Shown: positions 42,324 to 61,953 of the stretch, in pieces
Position numbering within the stretch: the first letter of the stretch is position 1
Layout: each line of letters begins with the position of its first letter
Source: Ignavibacteriota bacterium
GTDB taxonomy: Bacteria; Bacteroidota; Ignavibacteria; UBA10030
Direction of reading: 5' to 3'
Length of the DNA: 64,000 bases
NCBI GenBank assembly: GCA_963701295.1
Contig: OY969585.1
Coordinates: 2,336,001-2,400,000 of the forward strand
Notes under the pieces: model-generated
What the model was told of the DNA's origin: nothing
Databases searched by the model: none
Seen by the model: the letters and a program-made list of their open reading frames with translations, nothing else
Position numbers and translations under genes: made by a program

Positions 42324-42500
42324 GGTCATTTTGCCATCTCGCCAGATGCCTTAGGGGTTGTGACAGTATGGCGAAATGTCGAATATGGGACCCGCTTTTA
42401 AGCCTTACAGGAGTTTCAGGAGTATCTTCTGCTTCGATATACCAGAGGAATCAATGTCGAGGGGATGGCGAAAGTGGTTTTGCTATAATTTTTTTGGAAA
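42324..42500 (+). repeat. Structured non-coding repeat, copy A
   Basis: First 70 nt are 67/70 identical to 51564-51633; both copies end AAAGTGGTTTTGCTATAATTTTT. Confidence 0.8.
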
Positions 42501-42936
42501 TTATTTTCATTCCCTATGGCGGATCGTTTTCTAAATTTTTGTTTGTATTTAGAAAAAGGTCATTATATGCTCCATTTATAGGCTATTGCGCAGTCTTTGC
42601 AAGCAACAAAAATATCTCTTGCATTTGAAATTGAAAGTATTTACTTTTTTGCCAGCTGTTTACGAACGCCGGCTTGTCCGCCATAATTAGCTTATCTCCT
42701 GATAGCGGATGGACAATCCCGAAAACAGCTCCGACGCCGACGAATTCCTGATAGAAATTTTCTGAATACACACTGATCTGCCGCATGATGGTTTACGGTG
42801 GACGAATGTGTTCCAGCAATGTTCCTTAAAGGGGAAAATCTTTTCGTGCCAATGCTTTTTCGTTATTTTGAGGAATACGCCAAAGAGGTTAGACAACTTC
42901 GCGAAATTATGACGAACCAATATAGGAGGGAATTTT

Positions 42937-45989: not shown

Positions 45990-46203
45990 TCTAGACCGAA
46001 TGTGATTATCGCCGATATGCCACCTAACCATTTTAAAAAGAAAAGAGTCAAGTACATAACATTCTCCCGATGCGTCCCACAGAGTGGGATTCAAGTGTTA
46101 ACAACTGAACATAACCGGCAAAGAGCGATGATATAAGCCGCAACTTCGTTAAAGTTACATTCTTTTTGAGTCAATGCGGATGAAGGATTACGAAAAAGTG
46201 TTC

Positions 46204-48974: not shown

Positions 48975-49114
48975 ACCTAACCATTTTAAAAAGGAAAGAG
49001 TCAAGTAAATAGTAATCTCCCGATGCGTTCCGCAATAGTGATGTGAATGAACTTATTTCGTTATGTGTATATTGAAAATCATCGGCGCCGCAGCTTAGCG
49101 CCGTTCCGTTAGAA
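48975..49114 (+). repeat. Chimeric attC: R'' + IS1111-like end + attC 3' half
   Basis: ACCTAAC-CATTTTAAAAAGGAAAGAGTCAAG...ATGAACTTATTTCGTT...GCAGCTTAG...GTTAGAA. Confidence 0.8.
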
Positions 49115-51521: not shown

Positions 51522-51750
51522 CCATTTTAAAAAGGAATAATATTCTCCTGATGGGTTCCGCAAGGTCGTTTTGCCATCTCGCCAGATGCCTTTAGGGTTG
51601 TGACAGTATGGCGAAATGTCGAATATGGGACCCAAGAGCCTCAATCCCGTGACTCCGGAGGGATCGTTATGGTTGCTTCTACTTCGAGATAGGAGAGAAA
51701 TCAATCTAAACCGAAAAGGAAAGTGGTTTTGCTATAATTTTTTCTGGAAT
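51516..51750 (+). mobile_element. attC R'' + orphan IS1111-like end + structured repeat copy B
   Basis: ACCTAAC-CATTTTAAAAAGGAATAA.., then the repeat shared with 42324-42500. Confidence 0.7.
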
Positions 51751-52023
51751 AATTTTAGTGTCTCTCAGGGCTTTTTCTTGACTCTTTTAAAATGATTATG
51801 TAACGTCTTGCATACTTAGCAGTTGGGAAGAAGTAGAAGCGGAGACGTATGGTTCCCCTAGCTTGTTCCTTCAGCTTTGGCGCCAAAACGTATCCTGATA
51901 AGAGTATAGAGAAGTATACGAATGAAATTAGCTTTGTCAACCCAGCTAATTGTTAGGTCAAATTATGCAGTCTAACATACGAAAAACTCATGTTAGACTG
52001 TAATATGCAATCCAATCTTCCCA

Positions 52024-52373: not shown

Positions 52374-54599
52374 ATGAAGAAGATAATTATTAAGATATTT
52401 TTCCCAATTATTGGATTAATATCACTTATCTGGTTTTTATTTCGTGTCGTTCCCAAACCAAGTCGTGCCACGTATCCCTGCATGCGTGTCGCCTATCCTA
52501 TAGCTTCTTCTTTTGTGATCTACTTTCTTGGATTGGTTACTTCTGCTTTTGCTTTTGGCAAAATGAAAGAGCGTTGGAAATATTCACACTATTGGACTAT
52601 GATCGGCTTTTTGGTGATTGCACTAATAACAGGATTTTTCTCTTTTCAGGCAGATCAACCTCCAGTATATGCTAATACAAGCAATCTTGGTGCAGCTAAC
52701 GCACCTATTGGCGAAGCAAAAGGAATATACCCAGGAAGAGTAGTTTGGGTGCATGATTCTGCCGCTACAAATCAAAATTGTGTTCCCGGTTCTTACGGTC
52801 ATGGATGGTTTTTGCCGGAGAACAATAATCAGACAGTTGTAGACGGGATGGTTTCTTCTGCTATTCAAAAACTGACAGGACAGATTACAGATAGTGCTGC
52901 TTGGAAGGCGATATTTGAATATCATAATACGACACGCGGCAAGGGAGCTGTCAATTATGCAGCCGGAGAAAAAATCTTTATAAAAATAAACGCTACAAGC
53001 GGCTGGAGTGGAAACTATAATACATCGGATCTATCAAAGGTATACAATTCAAATTACGGTATCTCCGAAACTTCCCCGGCGATTGTGCTGTCAGTGCTGC
53101 GTCACCTCGTGAGCAAGGTGCGTGTTTCACAGACCGATATCTATATTGGCGATCCGATGAAGCACATCTACAAACACTGCTATGACCTCTGGCATGCGGA
53201 ATTTCCGAACGTCCACTATCTCGATAACAGCTACTCCACGCTGGGAAGAGAAAAAGCAACCGCAAGCACTACAGCAAAAATATATTATTCCGATCACGGA
53301 GCCGTGTTGCGCGCGAACGTTTGGGACCCGGGGAGACCCGGGGGAAGTCCTATCTATAATGATTATCTTTACACAATATTATCAACCGCGGAATATGTTA
53401 TCAACCTGCCGATGTTAAAAGGACACCAGCGGGCGGGCATAACGGCTTTTGCTAAGAATAATTTCGGTTCACAAACCAGAGCAGACGCGTCACAGCTACA
53501 TGACGGTCTTGTGGCTCCGATGCAAATGGAGAATGGCATAACAAGACCTGGATACGGTTTATATCGCGTTCAGGTCGATTTCATGACACATTCACTCACC
53601 GGAAAAAAGAACCTATTTTACTTGATGGATGCCCTGTGGGCGACCGACTACGAAGCGGACGTCCCTTTAAAATGGCAAATGGCTCCGTTCAATAACGACT
53701 GGATGTCTTCGGTATTCGCATCGTTCGATCCTGTCGCTATCGAATCTGTTGGGTACGATTTTCTCCGTTCTGAATTTACTGCCGCGCGCGGCAACTGCTC
53801 TACTGTTGTTCAAATGGATGGAGTTGATGACTATTTACATCAGGCAGCGGATTCGTTGAATTGGGCAAGCGGTATTAAATATGATCCCGACAGTAATGGG
53901 GTACATATTAAGAGCCTTGGAACGCATGAACACTGGAATAATGCTACCGATAAACAATACACAAGGAATCTCGGAATAGGTGAAGGAATAGAATTAATTT
54001 CTATTGATAATTCTTCCCTTCTCGTCCAACTCGTTTCTTTTGAGGTTACGCTTAAAGAAACTCAAATATTGCTTGTATGGAAAACTGCATCAGAAGAGAA
54101 TAACTATGGATTTGAAGTAGAGAGAAGAGCGGTTGTCAGTGATCAGTCATCGATGACCAATACTTGGCAGAAAATCGGGTTTGTTGCCGGTAACGGTTCC
54201 AGCAATATTACGCATGAGTATTCTTTCAGTGATCCCAAGCTTATGGTAGGCAGGTATGCCTATCGTTTGAAACAGATTGATAATGATGGGACGTTTACAT
54301 ATTCGACAAGTGTAGAAGTGAAGATTGGAGCGCCGGCTGTTTTCTCTTTGTCTCAGAATTATCCCAATCCCTTCAATCCTTCTACAAGTATTTCGTTTAA
54401 CCTTCCCACAAAATCATTTGTGTCACTCAAAGTATTTGATTTGATGGGAAAAGAGGTGGTAACACTGGCCGCACAAGAAATGAGCGCGGGAAATCATGCT
54501 CTGCAATGGAATGCGAGTAACCTATCGAGCGGTGTCTATTTTTATCGCTTGCATGCTGGTTCATTTTCTGAAACAAAGAAACTCGTTTTGCTGCGATAA
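52374..54599 (+). CDS. DUF362-like protein with T9SS-type C-terminal sorting domain
   Basis: RVVPKPSRATYPC, GIYPGRVVWVHD, IFIKIN, INLPMLKGH..AGIT..KN, DPVAIE; CTD NYPNPFNPST...KKLVLLR. Confidence 0.8.
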   Translation: MKKIIIKIFFPIIGLISLIWFLFRVVPKPSRATYPCMRVAYPIASSFVIYFLGLVTSAFAFGKMKERWKYSHYWTMIGFLVIALITGFFSFQADQPPVYANTSNLGAANAPIGEAKGIYPGRVVWVHDSAATNQNCVPGSYGHGWFLPENNNQTVVDGMVSSAIQKLTGQITDSAAWKAIFEYHNTTRGKGAVNYAAGEKIFIKINATSGWSGNYNTSDLSKVYNSNYGISETSPAIVLSVLRHLVSKVRVSQTDIYIGDPMKHIYKHCYDLWHAEFPNVHYLDNSYSTLGREKATASTTAKIYYSDHGAVLRANVWDPGRPGGSPIYNDYLYTILSTAEYVINLPMLKGHQRAGITAFAKNNFGSQTRADASQLHDGLVAPMQMENGITRPGYGLYRVQVDFMTHSLTGKKNLFYLMDALWATDYEADVPLKWQMAPFNNDWMSSVFASFDPVAIESVGYDFLRSEFTAARGNCSTVVQMDGVDDYLHQAADSLNWASGIKYDPDSNGVHIKSLGTHEHWNNATDKQYTRNLGIGEGIELISIDNSSLLVQLVSFEVTLKETQILLVWKTASEENNYGFEVERRAVVSDQSSMTNTWQKIGFVAGNGSSNITHEYSFSDPKLMVGRYAYRLKQIDNDGTFTYSTSVEVKIGAPAVFSLSQNYPNPFNPSTSISFNLPTKSFVSLKVFDLMGKEVVTLAAQEMSAGNHALQWNASNLSSGVYFYRLHAGSFSETKKLVLLR

Positions 54600-55406: not shown

Positions 55407-55955
55407 ATGAAAGTATTATTAATCATTGATATGCAAGTAGGATCATTTAAACCTGAAACGCCGTGTTATGATACTGATGGTGTTGTTCAAAGAATAAATT
55501 CATTATCAAATTATTTCCGACAAAATGGAGATAAAGTCATTTTTATCCAACATGATGGAACAAAGGAAAACTATTATATCCCTGGTACGTTCGATTGGAA
55601 TATTTTACCAACTCTAATTCAAAGTACAGACGATATTATCATTGGCAAAACGGCTAATGATTCATTTTATCATACAGATTTAGAAAGTGTATTGAATAAA
55701 AACGATATAACTGATTTATTTATTACAGGTTGTGCAACCGATTATTGTGTCAATGCAACAGTACATTCTGCTTTAATCAAAGATTATAATATCTTCATTG
55801 TTCAAGATTGTCACACAACAAAAAATCGTAAGTATTTGAACGCTGAACAAGTGATTCAATATCATAATTGGTTATGGGAAAATCTGACTCCTACGAATGG
55901 AAAAGTAAAATTAGTTTTATCAAAGGATTTGATAAAAACTCAAAACGCCACCTAA
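55407..55955 (+). CDS. Isochorismatase / cysteine hydrolase (cassette gene)
   Basis: LLIIDMQ, FIQH, KTANDSF, TGCATDYCV, DCHTT. Confidence 0.9.
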   Translation: MKVLLIIDMQVGSFKPETPCYDTDGVVQRINSLSNYFRQNGDKVIFIQHDGTKENYYIPGTFDWNILPTLIQSTDDIIIGKTANDSFYHTDLESVLNKNDITDLFITGCATDYCVNATVHSALIKDYNIFIVQDCHTTKNRKYLNAEQVIQYHNWLWENLTPTNGKVKLVLSKDLIKTQNAT

Positions 55956-56108
55956 CCCGCGGCTCAAGCTGACCAAATGAGCGTTTGTGCAATTTGCATT
56001 TCGCAGTTAAGTTTCGGTTCTTAATAAATAATATTTCAGAATGAACGCAGTTTGTTATCTACAATTTGAAAGTATTCAGTGCGGCAGCTTAGCCGCAATC
56101 CGTTAGGC
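55950..56108 (+). repeat. attC site (intact; uninterrupted GCCACCTAAC target)
   Basis: ACCTAAC-CCGCGGCTCAAGCTGAC...GCGGCAGCTTAGCCGC..GTTAGGC. Confidence 0.92.
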
Positions 56109-56809: not shown

Positions 56810-56991
56810 GTCTAACCAGCAACTCAAGCTGACGGAATGAGCCCGCCAAAAAGACGGCGGGCAGGCGTGGTACGTTAAGCATGGCTAATAGAGGTTCAGA
56901 TGTTTAATAATAAACTATTCAGAATGAACTCGGCTCGTTTTCAGCAACTTGCGGCTTCTCGTTGCCGCAGCTTAGCACCGGTCCCTTAGGC
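56810..56991 (+). repeat. attC site with hairpin insert
   Basis: GTCTAAC..ACTCAAGCTGAC...GCCGCAGCTTAG...CTTAGGC. Confidence 0.82.
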
Positions 56992-57036: not shown

Positions 57037-58025
57037 ATGAAGCACCGGTTTACCGAGCAGCAGATTACTTTTGCCTTGAGGCAAGCAGCATCAGGCACAC
57101 CTGTGGTAGAGATAGCACGAAAAATGGCAATTAGTGAGCCTACATTTTACCGATGGAAGACACAATACACAGGATTGGAAGGCTCTGAGATTCATTGGTT
57201 GAAATCACTCGAAGATGAGAATCGGCGGCTGAAGCAACTAGTGGCAAATCTGACACTGGACAAGCAGATGCTTCAGGAGGTGCTGTCAAAAAAGCTCTGA
57301 AGCCTGTCACATGCAGAGAACTGGTAAAAGAGTTGGTGGAAACGTACCAGACAAGCGAACGTCAGGCCTGTGCAGCATTAGGATGACCACGCACGACCCA
57401 TCATTATAGAAGTAAGGCTGATCCTCAAGAGGCATTAAGGATGAGATTGAAAGATTTAGCTGGAGGACGGGTAGGATATGGATATCGAAGGCTTCACATA
57501 TTACTCAAGCGAGAAGGATGGGAAGTTAATCATAAGCGTATTTATCGTCTGTATCGGCACGAAGGGCTGGCATTGCGTAAAAAGCGGCCACGGCGAAGAG
57601 TGGCATGAGTGAAGCGTGAAGTACAACCCACAGCGAAGGAACACAATGAATGTTGGAGTATGGATTTTGTTTCTGATCAGTTGTTCGATGGACGCAGGGT
57701 ACGGATATGAGTGATAGTCGACAACCACACACGTGAGAGCTTGGCATTAGAACCGAGCCAGAGGATCCGTGGGATCGATGTCGTTGCTGTTTTGGAACGA
57801 ATTACTCGTATACGAAGCCTGGCGTCAGGATTACGATGCACAGAAACCTCATAGTGCTTTGGGGTACCTTTCACCAATAGAATTTATTGATGATCAGAAG
57901 AAAAACAAAGCTGCATGAATAAAAATAAACAGCTAAATTATCACCCAATCTGGATCAAAGATGGGGAGCAGTACAAAATGGATAAATATTAACTCATCAT
58001 TGGCACACAATCCGGGTGCAGGCCA
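57037..58025 (+). mobile_element. Degraded IS3 (inner type) followed by an outer-type right end
   Basis: orfA 57037-57300 similar to 34969-35232; orfB with several stops; ends GGGGAGCAGTACA (57975) and GGGTGCAGGCCA (58025). Confidence 0.85.
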
Positions 58026-58096: not shown

Positions 58097-60307
58097 ATGA
58101 AGCATTTTGCTAAATCAAATTATTCTAAAGTAAAATTTTTGTATCGTTTATTTATCATCATAGGTCTTCAATGTCTGTTGATTTTCTCCATGCATGCCCA
58201 ATTAAATCAATATCCGCAGAAAAGCTATATACTAGACGATTTTGATCACGATACAACATCAGGTTTCAACGATTTCTTCGGTATGCGTGGAATATGGAAT
58301 AATAATACCGCTATCATCAACCCAAGTTATATTCCTACTGGAGGCAAAAACTATTATTTAAAACTTACCTATGACGTAAGTGATTCTTCTGCTCAAGGTG
58401 GGTGGTGGGAACAGTTTGCATATAACTATTCTAACAATCCGATATTTGATATAAGTGATTTTGATGAATTCAGGTTTTCGGTCAAAGGCGGAAGCACGTA
58501 CACCACCAGATTCTATATTGAATTTGACCAGGGGCAATTCGAAAAAGTGAAACGCATTGAAATCGATGGTGTCACTACGAGCTTTCAGGAAAAAATAATT
58601 CCGCTAAAGGATTCCCTGGTGGGATTCGATTTTACCAGAATGAGGCAGGTCGCTATTGTGCTGGATAGTTCTGCTACTGAAAAAGCGGGAACTCTTTATT
58701 TTGACAATTTTTATTTTGTTAACAAACACGAAAGTTATTCGACCATAGATGATTTGCTGGATTTAATTAGTAAGAAGGCGTGTAAATACTTTTTTGATCA
58801 TGTGCATCCTACAACAGGACTGGTTCGCGATCATTCCAGTGATGTGAATGTATCGAGCATTGCAGCCGTCGGTTTTCAACTTACCGCATTAGGTATTGGA
58901 GCTGAGAGGACTTGGGTGACTAGAAGTGACGCAGCTTCAAATACAAAGAAAATTCTGAAGACCCTTAGTGCCAACCAAGACTCAAACGCAAGTGGAAGTA
59001 ATGGATATAAAGGATTTTATTATCATATGCTCGGAATAAATACAGGATTGAGAGACGGGACGAGTGAGCTTTCATCGATCGATGCGTCTATTTTCTTTGC
59101 GGGTGTAATTTTTGCAAGAGAGTATTTTCATGATTCTACTTCCGATGAAATTCAAATACGGGCGTTGGCTGATAGTATTGTTAATAGAGTAGATTGGAGA
59201 TGGATGCTTGATACACTCAAAAATCAATTTTACATGGACTGGAAGCCTTCTATCGGGTTCGGTCCTTCTCATTGGGATAATTATACCGATGAAGCAATCC
59301 TCATCTCATTTTTAGCTATTGGCTCAGGAAAAGTTGATTCAAGCGTCTTCTATGCGTGGACAAGAGTTCGGGGCACGTACGGAGCTTATACTTTCCGACA
59401 AAGCTATTGGGGTTCACTCTTTACGTATTTGTATGCACATTGTTGGATAGATTTTAAAAAATGCGGTTACGATCATTGTTCTGATTCGGTGAATTGGTGG
59501 AATAATTCTGAACAAGCTGTTAAAGCAAACAGGCAGTTCTGCATTGATAATTCAGCGAATTATTCGACCTATAGCGATAGCAGCTGGGGATTGACTGCTT
59601 GCTTCGGACCCGGTGGATATAACGGTGGAGTATCAAAAAGCTATGGAGCTTTTCCGTTAGCTGATCCCCCGCCTAATCACGACGGGACCATTCCACCGTA
59701 CGGCGCCGGTAGCAGCATAATATTCTTCGACTCGATTCAAAATGAATCAGTAAAGGCTCTAAAAAATTACTACGACAACTATCCCAGGCTATGGGGGCTT
59801 TATGGATTTAAGGATGCATTTAATTTAGGACGGGCTTCCGATTCTACAGATGATTGGTATGCAAACGACTATGTAGGAATTGATATTGGGACATTGTTAG
59901 TCATGATCGAGAACTACAGAACTGGTCTAGTATGGAATTATTTTTTGAAGAATAAGTATGTCGCAACTGCAATAAAAACAATCTTCAAAAAAGATATATC
60001 AGCCTTGTCACTCTCCGTCGAATTCAATGTTAGTAATATACCGGAAAGTGCTTTCCTGCAACAAAACTATCCTAATCCATTTAATCCTTCAACGACAATT
60101 TCATTTAGTCTTCCATCACAATCATTTGTATCATTGAGAATATTTGATCTATTAGGAAGAGAAGTGGCAACTATTGTCTCTGAAGAAATGTCAGCTGGTA
60201 ATTATTCCAAACGATGGAATGCGGCAAATATATCGAGTGGAATTTATTTTTATCGGTTACAGGCAGGCACATTAACTGAGACCAAAAAACTCCTTTTGCT
60301 GAGATGA
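58097..60307 (+). CDS. Glycoamylase-like (GH144-like) glycoside hydrolase with N-terminal carbohydrate-binding-like module and T9SS-type CTD
   Basis: TGLVRD...SSIAAVGF, GFYYH, SELSSID, RVDW.WM, WGLTA, YGFKDAFN, GIDIG...MIENY; CTD NYPNPFNPST. Confidence 0.82.
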   Translation: MKHFAKSNYSKVKFLYRLFIIIGLQCLLIFSMHAQLNQYPQKSYILDDFDHDTTSGFNDFFGMRGIWNNNTAIINPSYIPTGGKNYYLKLTYDVSDSSAQGGWWEQFAYNYSNNPIFDISDFDEFRFSVKGGSTYTTRFYIEFDQGQFEKVKRIEIDGVTTSFQEKIIPLKDSLVGFDFTRMRQVAIVLDSSATEKAGTLYFDNFYFVNKHESYSTIDDLLDLISKKACKYFFDHVHPTTGLVRDHSSDVNVSSIAAVGFQLTALGIGAERTWVTRSDAASNTKKILKTLSANQDSNASGSNGYKGFYYHMLGINTGLRDGTSELSSIDASIFFAGVIFAREYFHDSTSDEIQIRALADSIVNRVDWRWMLDTLKNQFYMDWKPSIGFGPSHWDNYTDEAILISFLAIGSGKVDSSVFYAWTRVRGTYGAYTFRQSYWGSLFTYLYAHCWIDFKKCGYDHCSDSVNWWNNSEQAVKANRQFCIDNSANYSTYSDSSWGLTACFGPGGYNGGVSKSYGAFPLADPPPNHDGTIPPYGAGSSIIFFDSIQNESVKALKNYYDNYPRLWGLYGFKDAFNLGRASDSTDDWYANDYVGIDIGTLLVMIENYRTGLVWNYFLKNKYVATAIKTIFKKDISALSLSVEFNVSNIPESAFLQQNYPNPFNPSTTISFSLPSQSFVSLRIFDLLGREVATIVSEEMSAGNYSKRWNAANISSGIYFYRLQAGTLTETKKLLLLR

Positions 60308-60339
60308 AACAATTGCCACCGAACCACTTTAAAAAGGAA

Positions 60340-60637
60340 TAAGTCAAGAGAAAAGAGTACTCCCGAGGCATCAAGTGATCTATGATGCCGTGTTTGTTCT
60401 TTGAATTAGTTGTCACCGATACACGCCCGCCACAAGATACCGCACGGCGGGCAAGCCGCAGTGCCGATAGATTTATCGAGCGGACAGCCATACCGAAGCA
60501 ATGACGTCCAAACCATTTTTCGGATTAACCTCCAATTCATCAAAATACCGATGGTGGAAGCATGTCTCGTCCAAGCGAGAGGTTCCAGATATTTTCACGG
60601 CGCAACGCCTGACTTCCCAATCCAGCGGACGATGCTC
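60340..60637 (-). ncRNA. Candidate bridge RNA / seekRNA region
   Basis: Position typical of IS1111 guide RNAs; several hairpins; two short matches to the element's end junction; RNA boundaries unknown. Confidence 0.6.
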
Positions 60638-61651
60638 TTACGGCATCAGTGAGGAAAGCGGGCTTGTCAGGCGCGGCCATTGCTGAGATTTCTGTCGGTT
60701 GATCGGCTGCCCTTTGAGACCATTATATGATGTTTTGTTCTTTAAGACATAGTAAACAATCTTTGCAAGCTCCTTCGCAAGAACAGCATAGGCGGTTGGC
60801 TCGTTAGATCGACGAGCTAATTTCTGAAAGAGACGTTTGTATTCAGGATAATACTGAACAGCATGGACAGCGGCATCAGAGAAGGCGATTTTGAGATACT
60901 TATTGCCGTCTTTGCTGGAACGGTGGTGCACGGAACGATTGGGGTTATCAGCCGCAGGGACAAGTCGGCAGTACGAGACAAATCTCTTATCAGAGTCGAA
61001 GCGTTCGATACCGTCGATCTCAAGATACACCGTGAAGGCTGAGAGCTTGCCGATCCCTGGGATGTGCAGGAGACGTTGAATATCGTCATTGGGGATCAGG
61101 ATCGGATGGAGAGATTTTTCCAGAGCGAGGATCTGAGAGGTGAACATATCGCGAGTATGTTCCAGCACAGCAGTCTGGAAGCGATAGGGATCATGGACAG
61201 AGCCGTTAAATTTGGCGTGAATGCTGTAGAGACGCAGCAGACAGGCAGAGCGTTGCTGAACGAGCCGTAAGCGAATGCGCATGGTATCTCGTAAGCCGCG
61301 AAGATCGCGGCTGATTTTATGAGCTTGGGGAATGAGTCCCTGCCGTAAGAGGATAGCGAGAGTTTGCGAATCAACTTTATCGGTCTTAACTTTAGCATAG
61401 CTGATGGCTTTGAGATATTTTGCGTGAGCAAGGACGAGATCGATGCCGTGGTCTTCGAGTAAATCGTTGAGCCAGTACCACCCGGTGGTAGACTCGACGA
61501 CAGCCTGATGGGAACCAGGCAAGGAATGGAAGTAATCGAGAACCACCTCGTTGCTATTCTCGACGCGTTGTTGTTTGATGACAGCACCGGTGTCATCGAC
61601 AGTGGTGATATAACTATTATCAGAGTGCAAATCGATACCTGAGTAATACAT
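60638..61651 (-). CDS. IS110 family DEDD recombinase
   Basis: GIDLH, VVESTTGW, KTDKVDS, IPGIG, SYCRLVP, GNKYLK. Confidence 0.93.
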   Translation of the reverse strand: MYYSGIDLHSDNSYITTVDDTGAVIKQQRVENSNEVVLDYFHSLPGSHQAVVESTTGWYWLNDLLEDHGIDLVLAHAKYLKAISYAKVKTDKVDSQTLAILLRQGLIPQAHKISRDLRGLRDTMRIRLRLVQQRSACLLRLYSIHAKFNGSVHDPYRFQTAVLEHTRDMFTSQILALEKSLHPILIPNDDIQRLLHIPGIGKLSAFTVYLEIDGIERFDSDKRFVSYCRLVPAADNPNRSVHHRSSKDGNKYLKIAFSDAAVHAVQYYPEYKRLFQKLARRSNEPTAYAVLAKELAKIVYYVLKNKTSYNGLKGQPINRQKSQQWPRLTSPLSSLMP

Positions 61652-61730
61652 GGGAATCTCCTATTGTTGATGATGAATGTTTAATTCTTCAAGCTAAACA
61701 TACAAAATCGGGAGGTTCCTTTTTGGTAAT

Positions 61731-61953
61731 ATCTAACAACTCAAGCTGACGAAATGAGCGCCCGCCCAAAGATAAAGCTTGGCGGGTAAATGGGTACGTT
61801 AAGCATGGCTGGTGGTAGGTTATCGTTATTATTATTAAGTTCTTTGTACCTTATATATTTTTGTGTAATTAATTTTGTTATCAGCATGAACTTGTTTCGT
61901 GTTCAATATATTGAAAGTTTTCAACGCCACCGCTTAGTGCCGATCCGTTAGGC
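61731..61953 (+). repeat. attC remainder right of IS110
   Basis: ATCTAAC-A-ACTCAAGCTGAC...ATGAACTTGTTTCG...GCTTAG...GTTAGGC. Confidence 0.82.

Follow-up and report, generated by a model that had tools for sequence, protein, structure and literature searches.

A probably inactive IS110-family element in an Ignavibacteriota integron array belongs to a lineage that is likely directed to attC by a predicted RNA overlapping the transposase stop codon

Among the described systems closest to the element analyzed here are IS621 and ISCro4 (PMC11208160, PMC11208158, PMC13626964; PDB 8wt6, 9t56) and the IS1111-attC group with ISPa21, ISPst6, ISKpn4 and ISPa25 (PMC11187229, PMC3001079, PMC13604230 Table 1), both as described in the accessible portions of these sources. 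IS621/ISCro4 have in common with the lineage described here two guide loops, a 7+2+5 geometry, a 2-nt core with C as its first base, handshake dinucleotides that immediately follow the right guides on their 3' side and a DEDD enzyme with an additional Ser, which is essential in IS621 (S241; PMC11208158, accessible portion). Unlike in IS621/ISCro4, the predicted RNA of this lineage is located downstream of the gene, the DNA is read opposite to the gene orientation, the donor loop is multi-branched, the repeats are long and the protein is distant (phmmer E 7e-6 to 9e-5). PMC11208160 (accessible portion) predicted that downstream RNAs carry donor guides in multi-loops, and the mechanism itself is already known. 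The IS1111-attC group shares with this lineage an IS110-superfamily DEDD enzyme, a non-coding RNA region that follows the gene, repeats in sub-terminal position, insertion into the R''-L'' half of attC, an orientation antisense to the cassettes and the order of the target matches; the half-site and orientation given for attC-targeting elements in the accessible text of PMC3001079 agree with those found here. IS1111 elements are defined by terminal extensions of 7 and 3 bp and sub-terminal repeats of 11-13 bp (PMC11187229, accessible portion), and the 7/3 extensions were confirmed in ISPa21 (sequence taken from pME-1a, naming according to the accessible part of PMC7232449). Group IIC-attC introns (PMC3001079, in part) are likewise attC-specialized mobile elements with antisense insertion, but they are retro-homing ribozymes with a reverse transcriptase and are unrelated. 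Integrons in Ignavibacteriae are mentioned in the accessible part of PMC9024848. A literature search, largely confined to papers outside subscription, returned no description of the present lineage or of an overlap between guide and stop codon.

We identified an IS110-family element at positions 60326-61734 of the window (the whole stretch of 64,000 nucleotides that was analyzed), where it splits one attC, the boxes of which carry the usual names (R'', L'', L' and R'). The transposase gene (60638-61651, minus strand) encodes a DEDD recombinase of 337 amino acids (333 in the intact sister copies) with the domains DEDD_Tnp_IS110 and Transposase_20 and an NF033542 match above the cut-off. The residues D7, E53, D91 and D94 are present; D7 and E53 are invariant among the homologues, while D91 and D94 were read from the sequence. 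Non-coding DNA extends ~310 nt downstream and 80 nt upstream of the gene. The first-pass annotation had placed a DEDD recombinase gene between R'' and L'' of an attC, which is confirmed by the domains and by L' and R' following at 61932-61953. A tblastn search of the source genome identified 11 full copies. Type A comprises two copies with a protein identical to that of the window copy, and type B comprises nine copies with 88.7% identity to type A that are mutually identical over 1377 bp. All 11 lie within attC, in one register and antisense to the cassettes, with 10 distinct flank pairs (two type B copies share their flanks, so that the nine represent eight distinct ones). Insertion is site- and orientation-specific in 11/11 without target duplication beyond the core, as in IS110 elements, and 11 of the 118 attC sites of the genome (~9%) are split. 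We consider it highly probable that the copy in the window, located in the spacer between R'' and L'' of an attC, is mutated and likely without catalytic activity, and that its lineage likely moves by a bridge-type RNA which runs from the last transposase codons into the right end, with a target loop reading attC and a donor loop reading the joined ends.

The final 27 kb of the window form a cassette array with repeated attC halves. The source genome (3.64 Mb, one contig) contains the 118 attC sites in clusters, a count obtained from 121 matches minus three isolated ones; a looser attC pattern left 235 of 361 matches unassigned and was replaced. The only integron integrase above the cut-off is found at 3566721-3567662 of the genome, more than 1 Mb from the window array. 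No full integrase adjoins the array (37376-63400), and the attC clusters are scattered over nine genome regions (median attC length ~155 nt in a rough count). Two unusually long cassettes of 2.2 kb (52374-54599 and 58097-60307) encode a DUF362 protein and a glucoamylase-like protein, each with a C-terminal domain for type IX secretion, and have a common 3' block of 265 nt (73%). An open reading frame for an IS3-type HTH protein (87 amino acids) between cassettes at 57037-58000 is probably an IS remnant. A non-coding block is repeated within the array (42324-42507 and 51564-51756, 89-96%), with the second copy directly behind a solo right end, and a CCCGCC...GGCGGG hairpin, possibly a small mobile repeat, recurs in similar form in the element right end (60421-60452), at 61760-61789 and inside several attC.

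The boundaries were defined by comparison with sister copies, empty sites and relatives. Type B junctions read xxxTAA-CCAG on one side and AATAT-CCAG on the other, with CCAG at both junctions in all nine sisters. Among 68 elements with both junctions, the core pairs were CC/CC (34), CA/CA (21), CC/CA (11) and CC/CT (2); the first core base is C in 68/68 and the second is C or A. The CCAG at both sister junctions and the fixed first C therefore place a 2-nt core at 60324-60325 and 61733-61734 (plus strand). It reads CC at the left junction, between target arm and element right end, and CT at the right junction of the window copy, where the intact sisters have CC. The AA core proposed at first is not compatible with these data, as it leaves a 1-nt spacer compared to the 5-nt R''-L'' spacer of empty attC in the source genome, which the 2-nt core restores. 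The donor junction proposed with it, AATATCT-AA-CCA(C/T)TTT, is 4 nt too long and gives a -35/-10 spacing of 21 nt. The -35-like hexamer TTGACT (60342-60347, minus strand) of an inferred promoter comes to lie 17 nt from a -10-like hexamer only once the ends are joined, and across the corrected junction this spacing is found in 71/71 elements. A spacing of 17 nt is the rule for sigma-70 promoters.

From left to right on the plus strand, the insertion consists of the attC R'' box as left target arm (60318-60324, with G replacing the usual T), the core, the right donor arm ACTTT (60326-60330), the second base of which differs from the guide of the window copy itself, and the sub-terminal inverted repeat of the right end (60331-60339). 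At the other side are the repeat of the left end (61716-61724), the left donor arm (61726-61732), the core and the remaining attC (61735-61953) with spacer, L'' (61739-61746), L' (61932-61938) and R' (61947-61953). The 9-bp inverted repeats had been recognized in the first-pass annotation; in 62 of 67 relatives they are 8-14 bp long. In the predicted circle the repeats are separated by 15 nt (8, the 2-nt core and 5), in contrast to 10 nt in IS1111 proper. Left flanks end in TAA in 59/61 cases and right flanks fit the L''-box pattern in only 45/65, and metagenome contigs of run X2 diverge just behind 61733. A circle joint was not found among the contigs of four metagenome runs, a search that is uninformative. 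A blastn search of the element left end against plasmids gave no match; tblastn of the transposase against plasmids gave nothing above 33%, and another search only IS4321/IS5075.

The predicted guide RNA is read from the minus strand and begins inside the gene. The 5' strand of the target-loop stem (60666-60674, PRLT codons) and the predicted left target guide (60648-60656), which reads R'', are both coding sequence. They are followed by the predicted right target guide for core and attC spacer (60622-60628), a predicted handshake AU (60620-60621) that, once strands are exchanged, would pair with the AT in the left donor arm and the 3' strand of the stem (60605-60613). The donor loop comprises the predicted left donor guide (60587-60595), variable hairpins closed by a conserved 3-bp helix (60522-60586), the predicted right donor guide (60513-60519) and a predicted handshake UU (60511-60512) that would pair with AA of R'' after strand exchange. 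The outer right end with terminal hairpins (60326-60497) completes the region. The first-pass annotation had singled out two 9-mers as candidate donor guides, and both are present where it located them; the expected number of occurrences of any one 9-mer in this end of 316 nt is ~0.002. That at 60585-60593 remains a donor-loop guide for the left arm without the proposed wobble pairing to the core, since the GG after AATATCT pairs with CC before the right donor guide in 43/43 rows and is structural. That at 60511-60519 remains the right donor guide, with its supposed core pairing replaced by the UU handshake (TT with AA of R'' in 68/71). The stem AACCTC/GAGGTT flanked by these matches is not conserved, with at least five of six positions paired in only 2 of 44 clusters. 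Target guides, which had not been found by eye, are readable at the two positions given above, the left one in the last codons of the reading frame and mutated in this copy. A left target guide at 60666-60674 was ruled out, as that segment is the covarying stem. The single-sequence fold of the region is unremarkable (z -1.18), and an Rfam search at gathering threshold gave three tRNAs and nothing over the element. Relatives L030, L044, L053 and L077 have lost nearly all of the hairpins that separate the donor guides, leaving natural minimal RNAs of 134-139 nt as candidates for compact scaffolds, and in L098 and L131 internal deletions take out most of the guide region while gene and right end remain.

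To assess the layout, 77 genome loci and the 11 own copies were compared, of which 80/88 could be parsed; 77 full guide regions formed 44 clusters at 92%. The RNA alignment had 43 rows, and the consensus structure was derived by RNAalifold from the same alignment, which favours that structure. In the target-loop stem, 99% of 774 cells were paired with 126 double changes (0/500 shuffles; slid controls 32-44%). The right donor guide matched the element end at 199/200 positions across 40 clusters, where shuffles averaged 146 and reached 168 at most, and was exact in 69/71 insertions, with L016 and the window copy as the two exceptions. Column shuffles ignore relatedness, and the donor guide alone was also counted on a tree (34 rows), where the guide changes jointly with the element end in 7/7 end changes. 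The right target guide matched the attC spacer at 164/234 positions (shuffles 136, max 157) in a comparison without L031 and type A. The left target guide matched at 214/280 versus 198 in the column-shuffle test (3/20000), a weak covariation because the target barely varies, and the left donor guide is nearly invariant across relatives. The target-loop handshake AT agreed with the left-end AT in 67/76. The covariation of the loops with donor and target that had been named as a check was thus found, and it supports the proposal, made from the sequence alone, of an IS110-family recombinase that is guided by RNA to attC of the FCB type.

A held-out set of 80 metagenome loci gave similar results (final parse 67/80; first, stricter parse 43/80, with the right donor guide exact in 19/31, several mis-parses included). 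The right donor guide matched at 178/190 positions (shuffles max 161) and exactly in 28/38 loci, the right target guide at 178/216 (shuffles max 151) and the left target guide at 199/259 versus 184 (5/20000). Target-loop guides that covary with the target, donor-loop guides that covary with the ends, and handshakes, which are the features of a bridge RNA, are present in the predicted RNA, suggesting that the element likely steers itself by a guide RNA.

Target choice in the source genome was compared with the guides. Type B copies occupy spacers with C at position 12 in 8/9 cases versus 39/107 empty sites (p=0.003) and the commonest spacer in 0/9 versus 48/107 (p=0.01; p=0.02 on the eight distinct sites), in agreement with their guide, which predicts avoidance of that spacer. 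In relatives L003, L007, L009 and L013 the guide reads the commonest spacer and that spacer is used. The empty site at 55947-55973 that had been proposed for a recombination assay has a mismatch to the right target guide at the base immediately following the core, and 56813-56822 fits better. Pairing with the target is loose (70-82% of positions), and 12 of 34 perfect 9-nt target matches in the source genome fall outside catalogued attC, where none of the 11 copies is found, so that a folded, single-stranded attC hairpin, or a structure related to IntI, might be required while the RNA merely fine-tunes the position. The guides, however, match both strands of a duplex, and close relatives with altered guides occupy non-attC sites that fit the new guides at 7-8/8 positions, which makes this explanation quite unlikely.

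A second alternative, modeled on seekRNAs, is that the target loop alone is used and the protein recognizes the ends via the sub-terminal repeats, the donor matches being remnants or serving excision only. An 82-nt RNA with target matches is sufficient for ISEc11 according to the accessible portion of Siddiquee et al., and the 8-14 bp repeats of the family would suit this model, as would the nearly constant left donor guide and the single donor position mismatched in 10/38 held-out loci (nearly always position 11, at which the window copy is mismatched as well). It is decidedly improbable given that the other four of five right-donor positions match in 37-38/38 held-out loci, that all seven changes on the tree are joint, and that the donor-loop handshake tracks the target in retargeted members, which requires DNA contact. 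Handshake letters change along with the DNA in the non-attC relatives L155, L081 and L078, with one handshake base mismatched in L078 and in L153.

The predicted left target guide overlaps the end of the gene. The TAA within this guide (60650-60652), needed to read R'', would double as the stop codon; it is the transposase stop in 75/80 parsed loci and in 60/63 held-out loci, compared to 48% TAA stops among the long open reading frames of the source genome. The five exceptions are two loci with insertions, L061 and both type A copies, which have TCA. The C-terminus lies two residues after SP in 100/120 close homologues versus only 4/96 full-length distant representatives. In L122 as well as L125, the WPRL codons are split off from the target loop by insertions, with a new stem upstream of the guide, so that gene end and RNA are separate. 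The possibility that the stop overlap locks the target was ruled out by three retargeted relatives (L132, L153/L156 and L155), which have lost the TAA and read through for 3-10 residues; the guides of L155 match its non-attC site at 8/8 positions on the right and at both donor-loop handshake bases. Since retargeted members read through, the overlap follows from the target, and it is likely incidental, a consequence of the reading frame extending into the RNA. A more speculative proposal, which we regard as unlikely, is that the attC-reading guide is the stop codon for a reason: a ribosome terminating inside the guide would keep the target loop open and hand the RNA to the new protein, so that the bridge RNA would be assembled in cis and processed in step with translation. 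This proposal also has the element as an independently evolved integron parasite, whose right target guide would be rewritten repeatedly, both to follow the attC spacer of each host and to let co-resident elements share the array.

The window copy, which had been treated as functional, carries lesions that had been overlooked. Codon 237 (60941-60943, minus strand) encodes Pro where the catalytic Ser is expected, at the position aligned with S241 of IS621. Ser is found here in 120/120 homologues, in the nine type B sisters and in metagenome contigs of runs X2, X3 and X5; among the 88 loci, 63 have Ser, two have Pro (both type A) and 23 were not parsed. The catalytic Ser of IS110 enzymes is accordingly lacking in the window copy and present in its lineage. 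A second type A change, P153H, affects a column that is invariant in 120/120. The change from TAA to TCA both lengthens the protein and breaks the guide, which explains why no target guide had been seen. The Ser237Pro change, the mutated guide/stop and a chimeric outer end suggest that the window copy is likely inactive, whereas the nine intact type B sisters likely move on their own. It is very improbable that the copy is still functional or that the lesions are assembly errors: its DEDD residues and both ends are intact and the protein of the sisters could act in trans, but Pro237 and TCA occur together in both type A copies, and a contig of metagenome run X1 matches 220 nt of the type A allele exactly, spanning neither lesion.

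The two type A copies are identical at 60498-61810 (77 nt into the attC) and different outside. The outer right end of the window copy is nearest to L006-type ends (84%) and its guide region to L001 (91%), and the simplest reading is that it likely arose by recombination between copies. The sites at 46026, 48979 and 51520, which the first-pass annotation had taken for sister ends, are truncated right-end remnants that lack transposase and guide region. On the plus strand they correspond to solo right ends at attC R'' (46028-46081 and 51522-51563) and one joined to the right half of an attC (48981-49034). Nine of 12 pattern matches to right ends without transposase appear genuine, three of them in the window; the others lie at 97796, 162894, 1810044, 2271824, 3157482 and 3160835 of the source genome, and several of the nine are joined to the right half of an attC. 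Solo left ends, in contrast to the nine solo right ends, were not found.

The relation to the IS1111-attC group, to which the element had been assigned, was analyzed by sequence comparison and phylogeny, with 6 of 44 clusters omitted because of frameshifts. ISPa21 is only 21.6% identical to type B, and one clade with ISPa21 was rejected by the AU test (p=2.8e-5) in a 16-row tree with long branches in which ISPa21 alone represented the IS1111-attC group. The transposase shows 22-24% identity to ISEc11, IS4321 and ISPa21, and its motif RLVP....SN (or SG/SA) differs from the GL-P----S(t)G of the tight IS1111 clade; the long downstream non-coding region of IS1111 is present, and the top-strand match lies 5' of the bottom-strand match (strands defined by the transposase gene). 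The crossover takes place at the C of TAAC, which the core overlaps, and in ISPa21 and ISKpn4 6 nt after TAAC, placing it ~5 nt nearer to R'' in this lineage than in the IS1111-attC group. Unlike in that group, a guide lies inside the end of the open reading frame and the hosts are mostly Ignavibacteriota and Bacteroidota MAGs, which also harbor the closest transposase relatives and so point to an FCB host. The nearest named relatives are deep-branching elements, namely NCBI 'ISGsu4 family' proteins (the NCBI label of L081 and L078, which the tree covers rather than ISGsu4 itself) and ISHvo10 (L082), with 29-32% identity and sister-group support of 97/96; the tree joins the lineage to the 'ISGsu4 family' proteins and less surely to ISHvo10. 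L081 and L078 resemble the lineage in how the RNA is laid out, in end spacing and in the RL.P catalytic loop, but have non-attC targets, a stop codon upstream of the target-loop stem and no WPxxxSPxx tail. Because identity, tree and crossover point differ, the lineage acts like a bridge/seekRNA element and like IS1111-attC and yet is no member, and it likely reached attC separately from the known integron invaders. The original geometry, an AA core in an IS1111-attC member, has a negligible probability in view of its spacer and promoter spacing and the rejected clade, even though attC half and antisense orientation are as in ISPa21/ISPst6 and a downstream non-coding region is present. A second, distant IS110 (24% identity to this lineage, 357 amino acids) was observed at L013:58-1131, where it occupies the L'' box of the attC that also holds the L013 member of this lineage, in opposite orientation; its ends also occur in L015, L045 and L120 and a related end in L004 and L166. 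It represents another lineage that targets attC, nested next to the present one.

Position, ends, core, guide-like matches with their covariation, and lesions are direct observations, and the remaining steps of the mechanism are drawn from work on IS621 and IS1111. By analogy, the element would excise to a circle, in which the -35 from the right end and the -10 from the left end would form a junction promoter that transcribes transposase and RNA. A tetramer would cut beside the 2-nt core through DEDD plus Ser, and the handshake pairs would favour insertion. Integration would take place antisense to the cassettes with loss of the normal attC geometry, so that the cassettes would be frozen. For tool building, the overlap with the gene means that the RNA needs to be expressed apart from it, starting ~30 nt before the stop. 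For an element with a downstream RNA and long repeats, the lineage also provides a large natural data set in which both handshake pairs and all four guides are readable and change with the DNA, which bears on the use of donor loops by such elements (predicted in PMC11208160; the accessible part of PMC11187229 gives no account of it for seekRNAs). The findings point to convergence, in that a branch distant from ISPa21 also targets attC and crosses over at a different point. If split sites freeze cassettes, ~9% of the attC sites of this genome would be affected.
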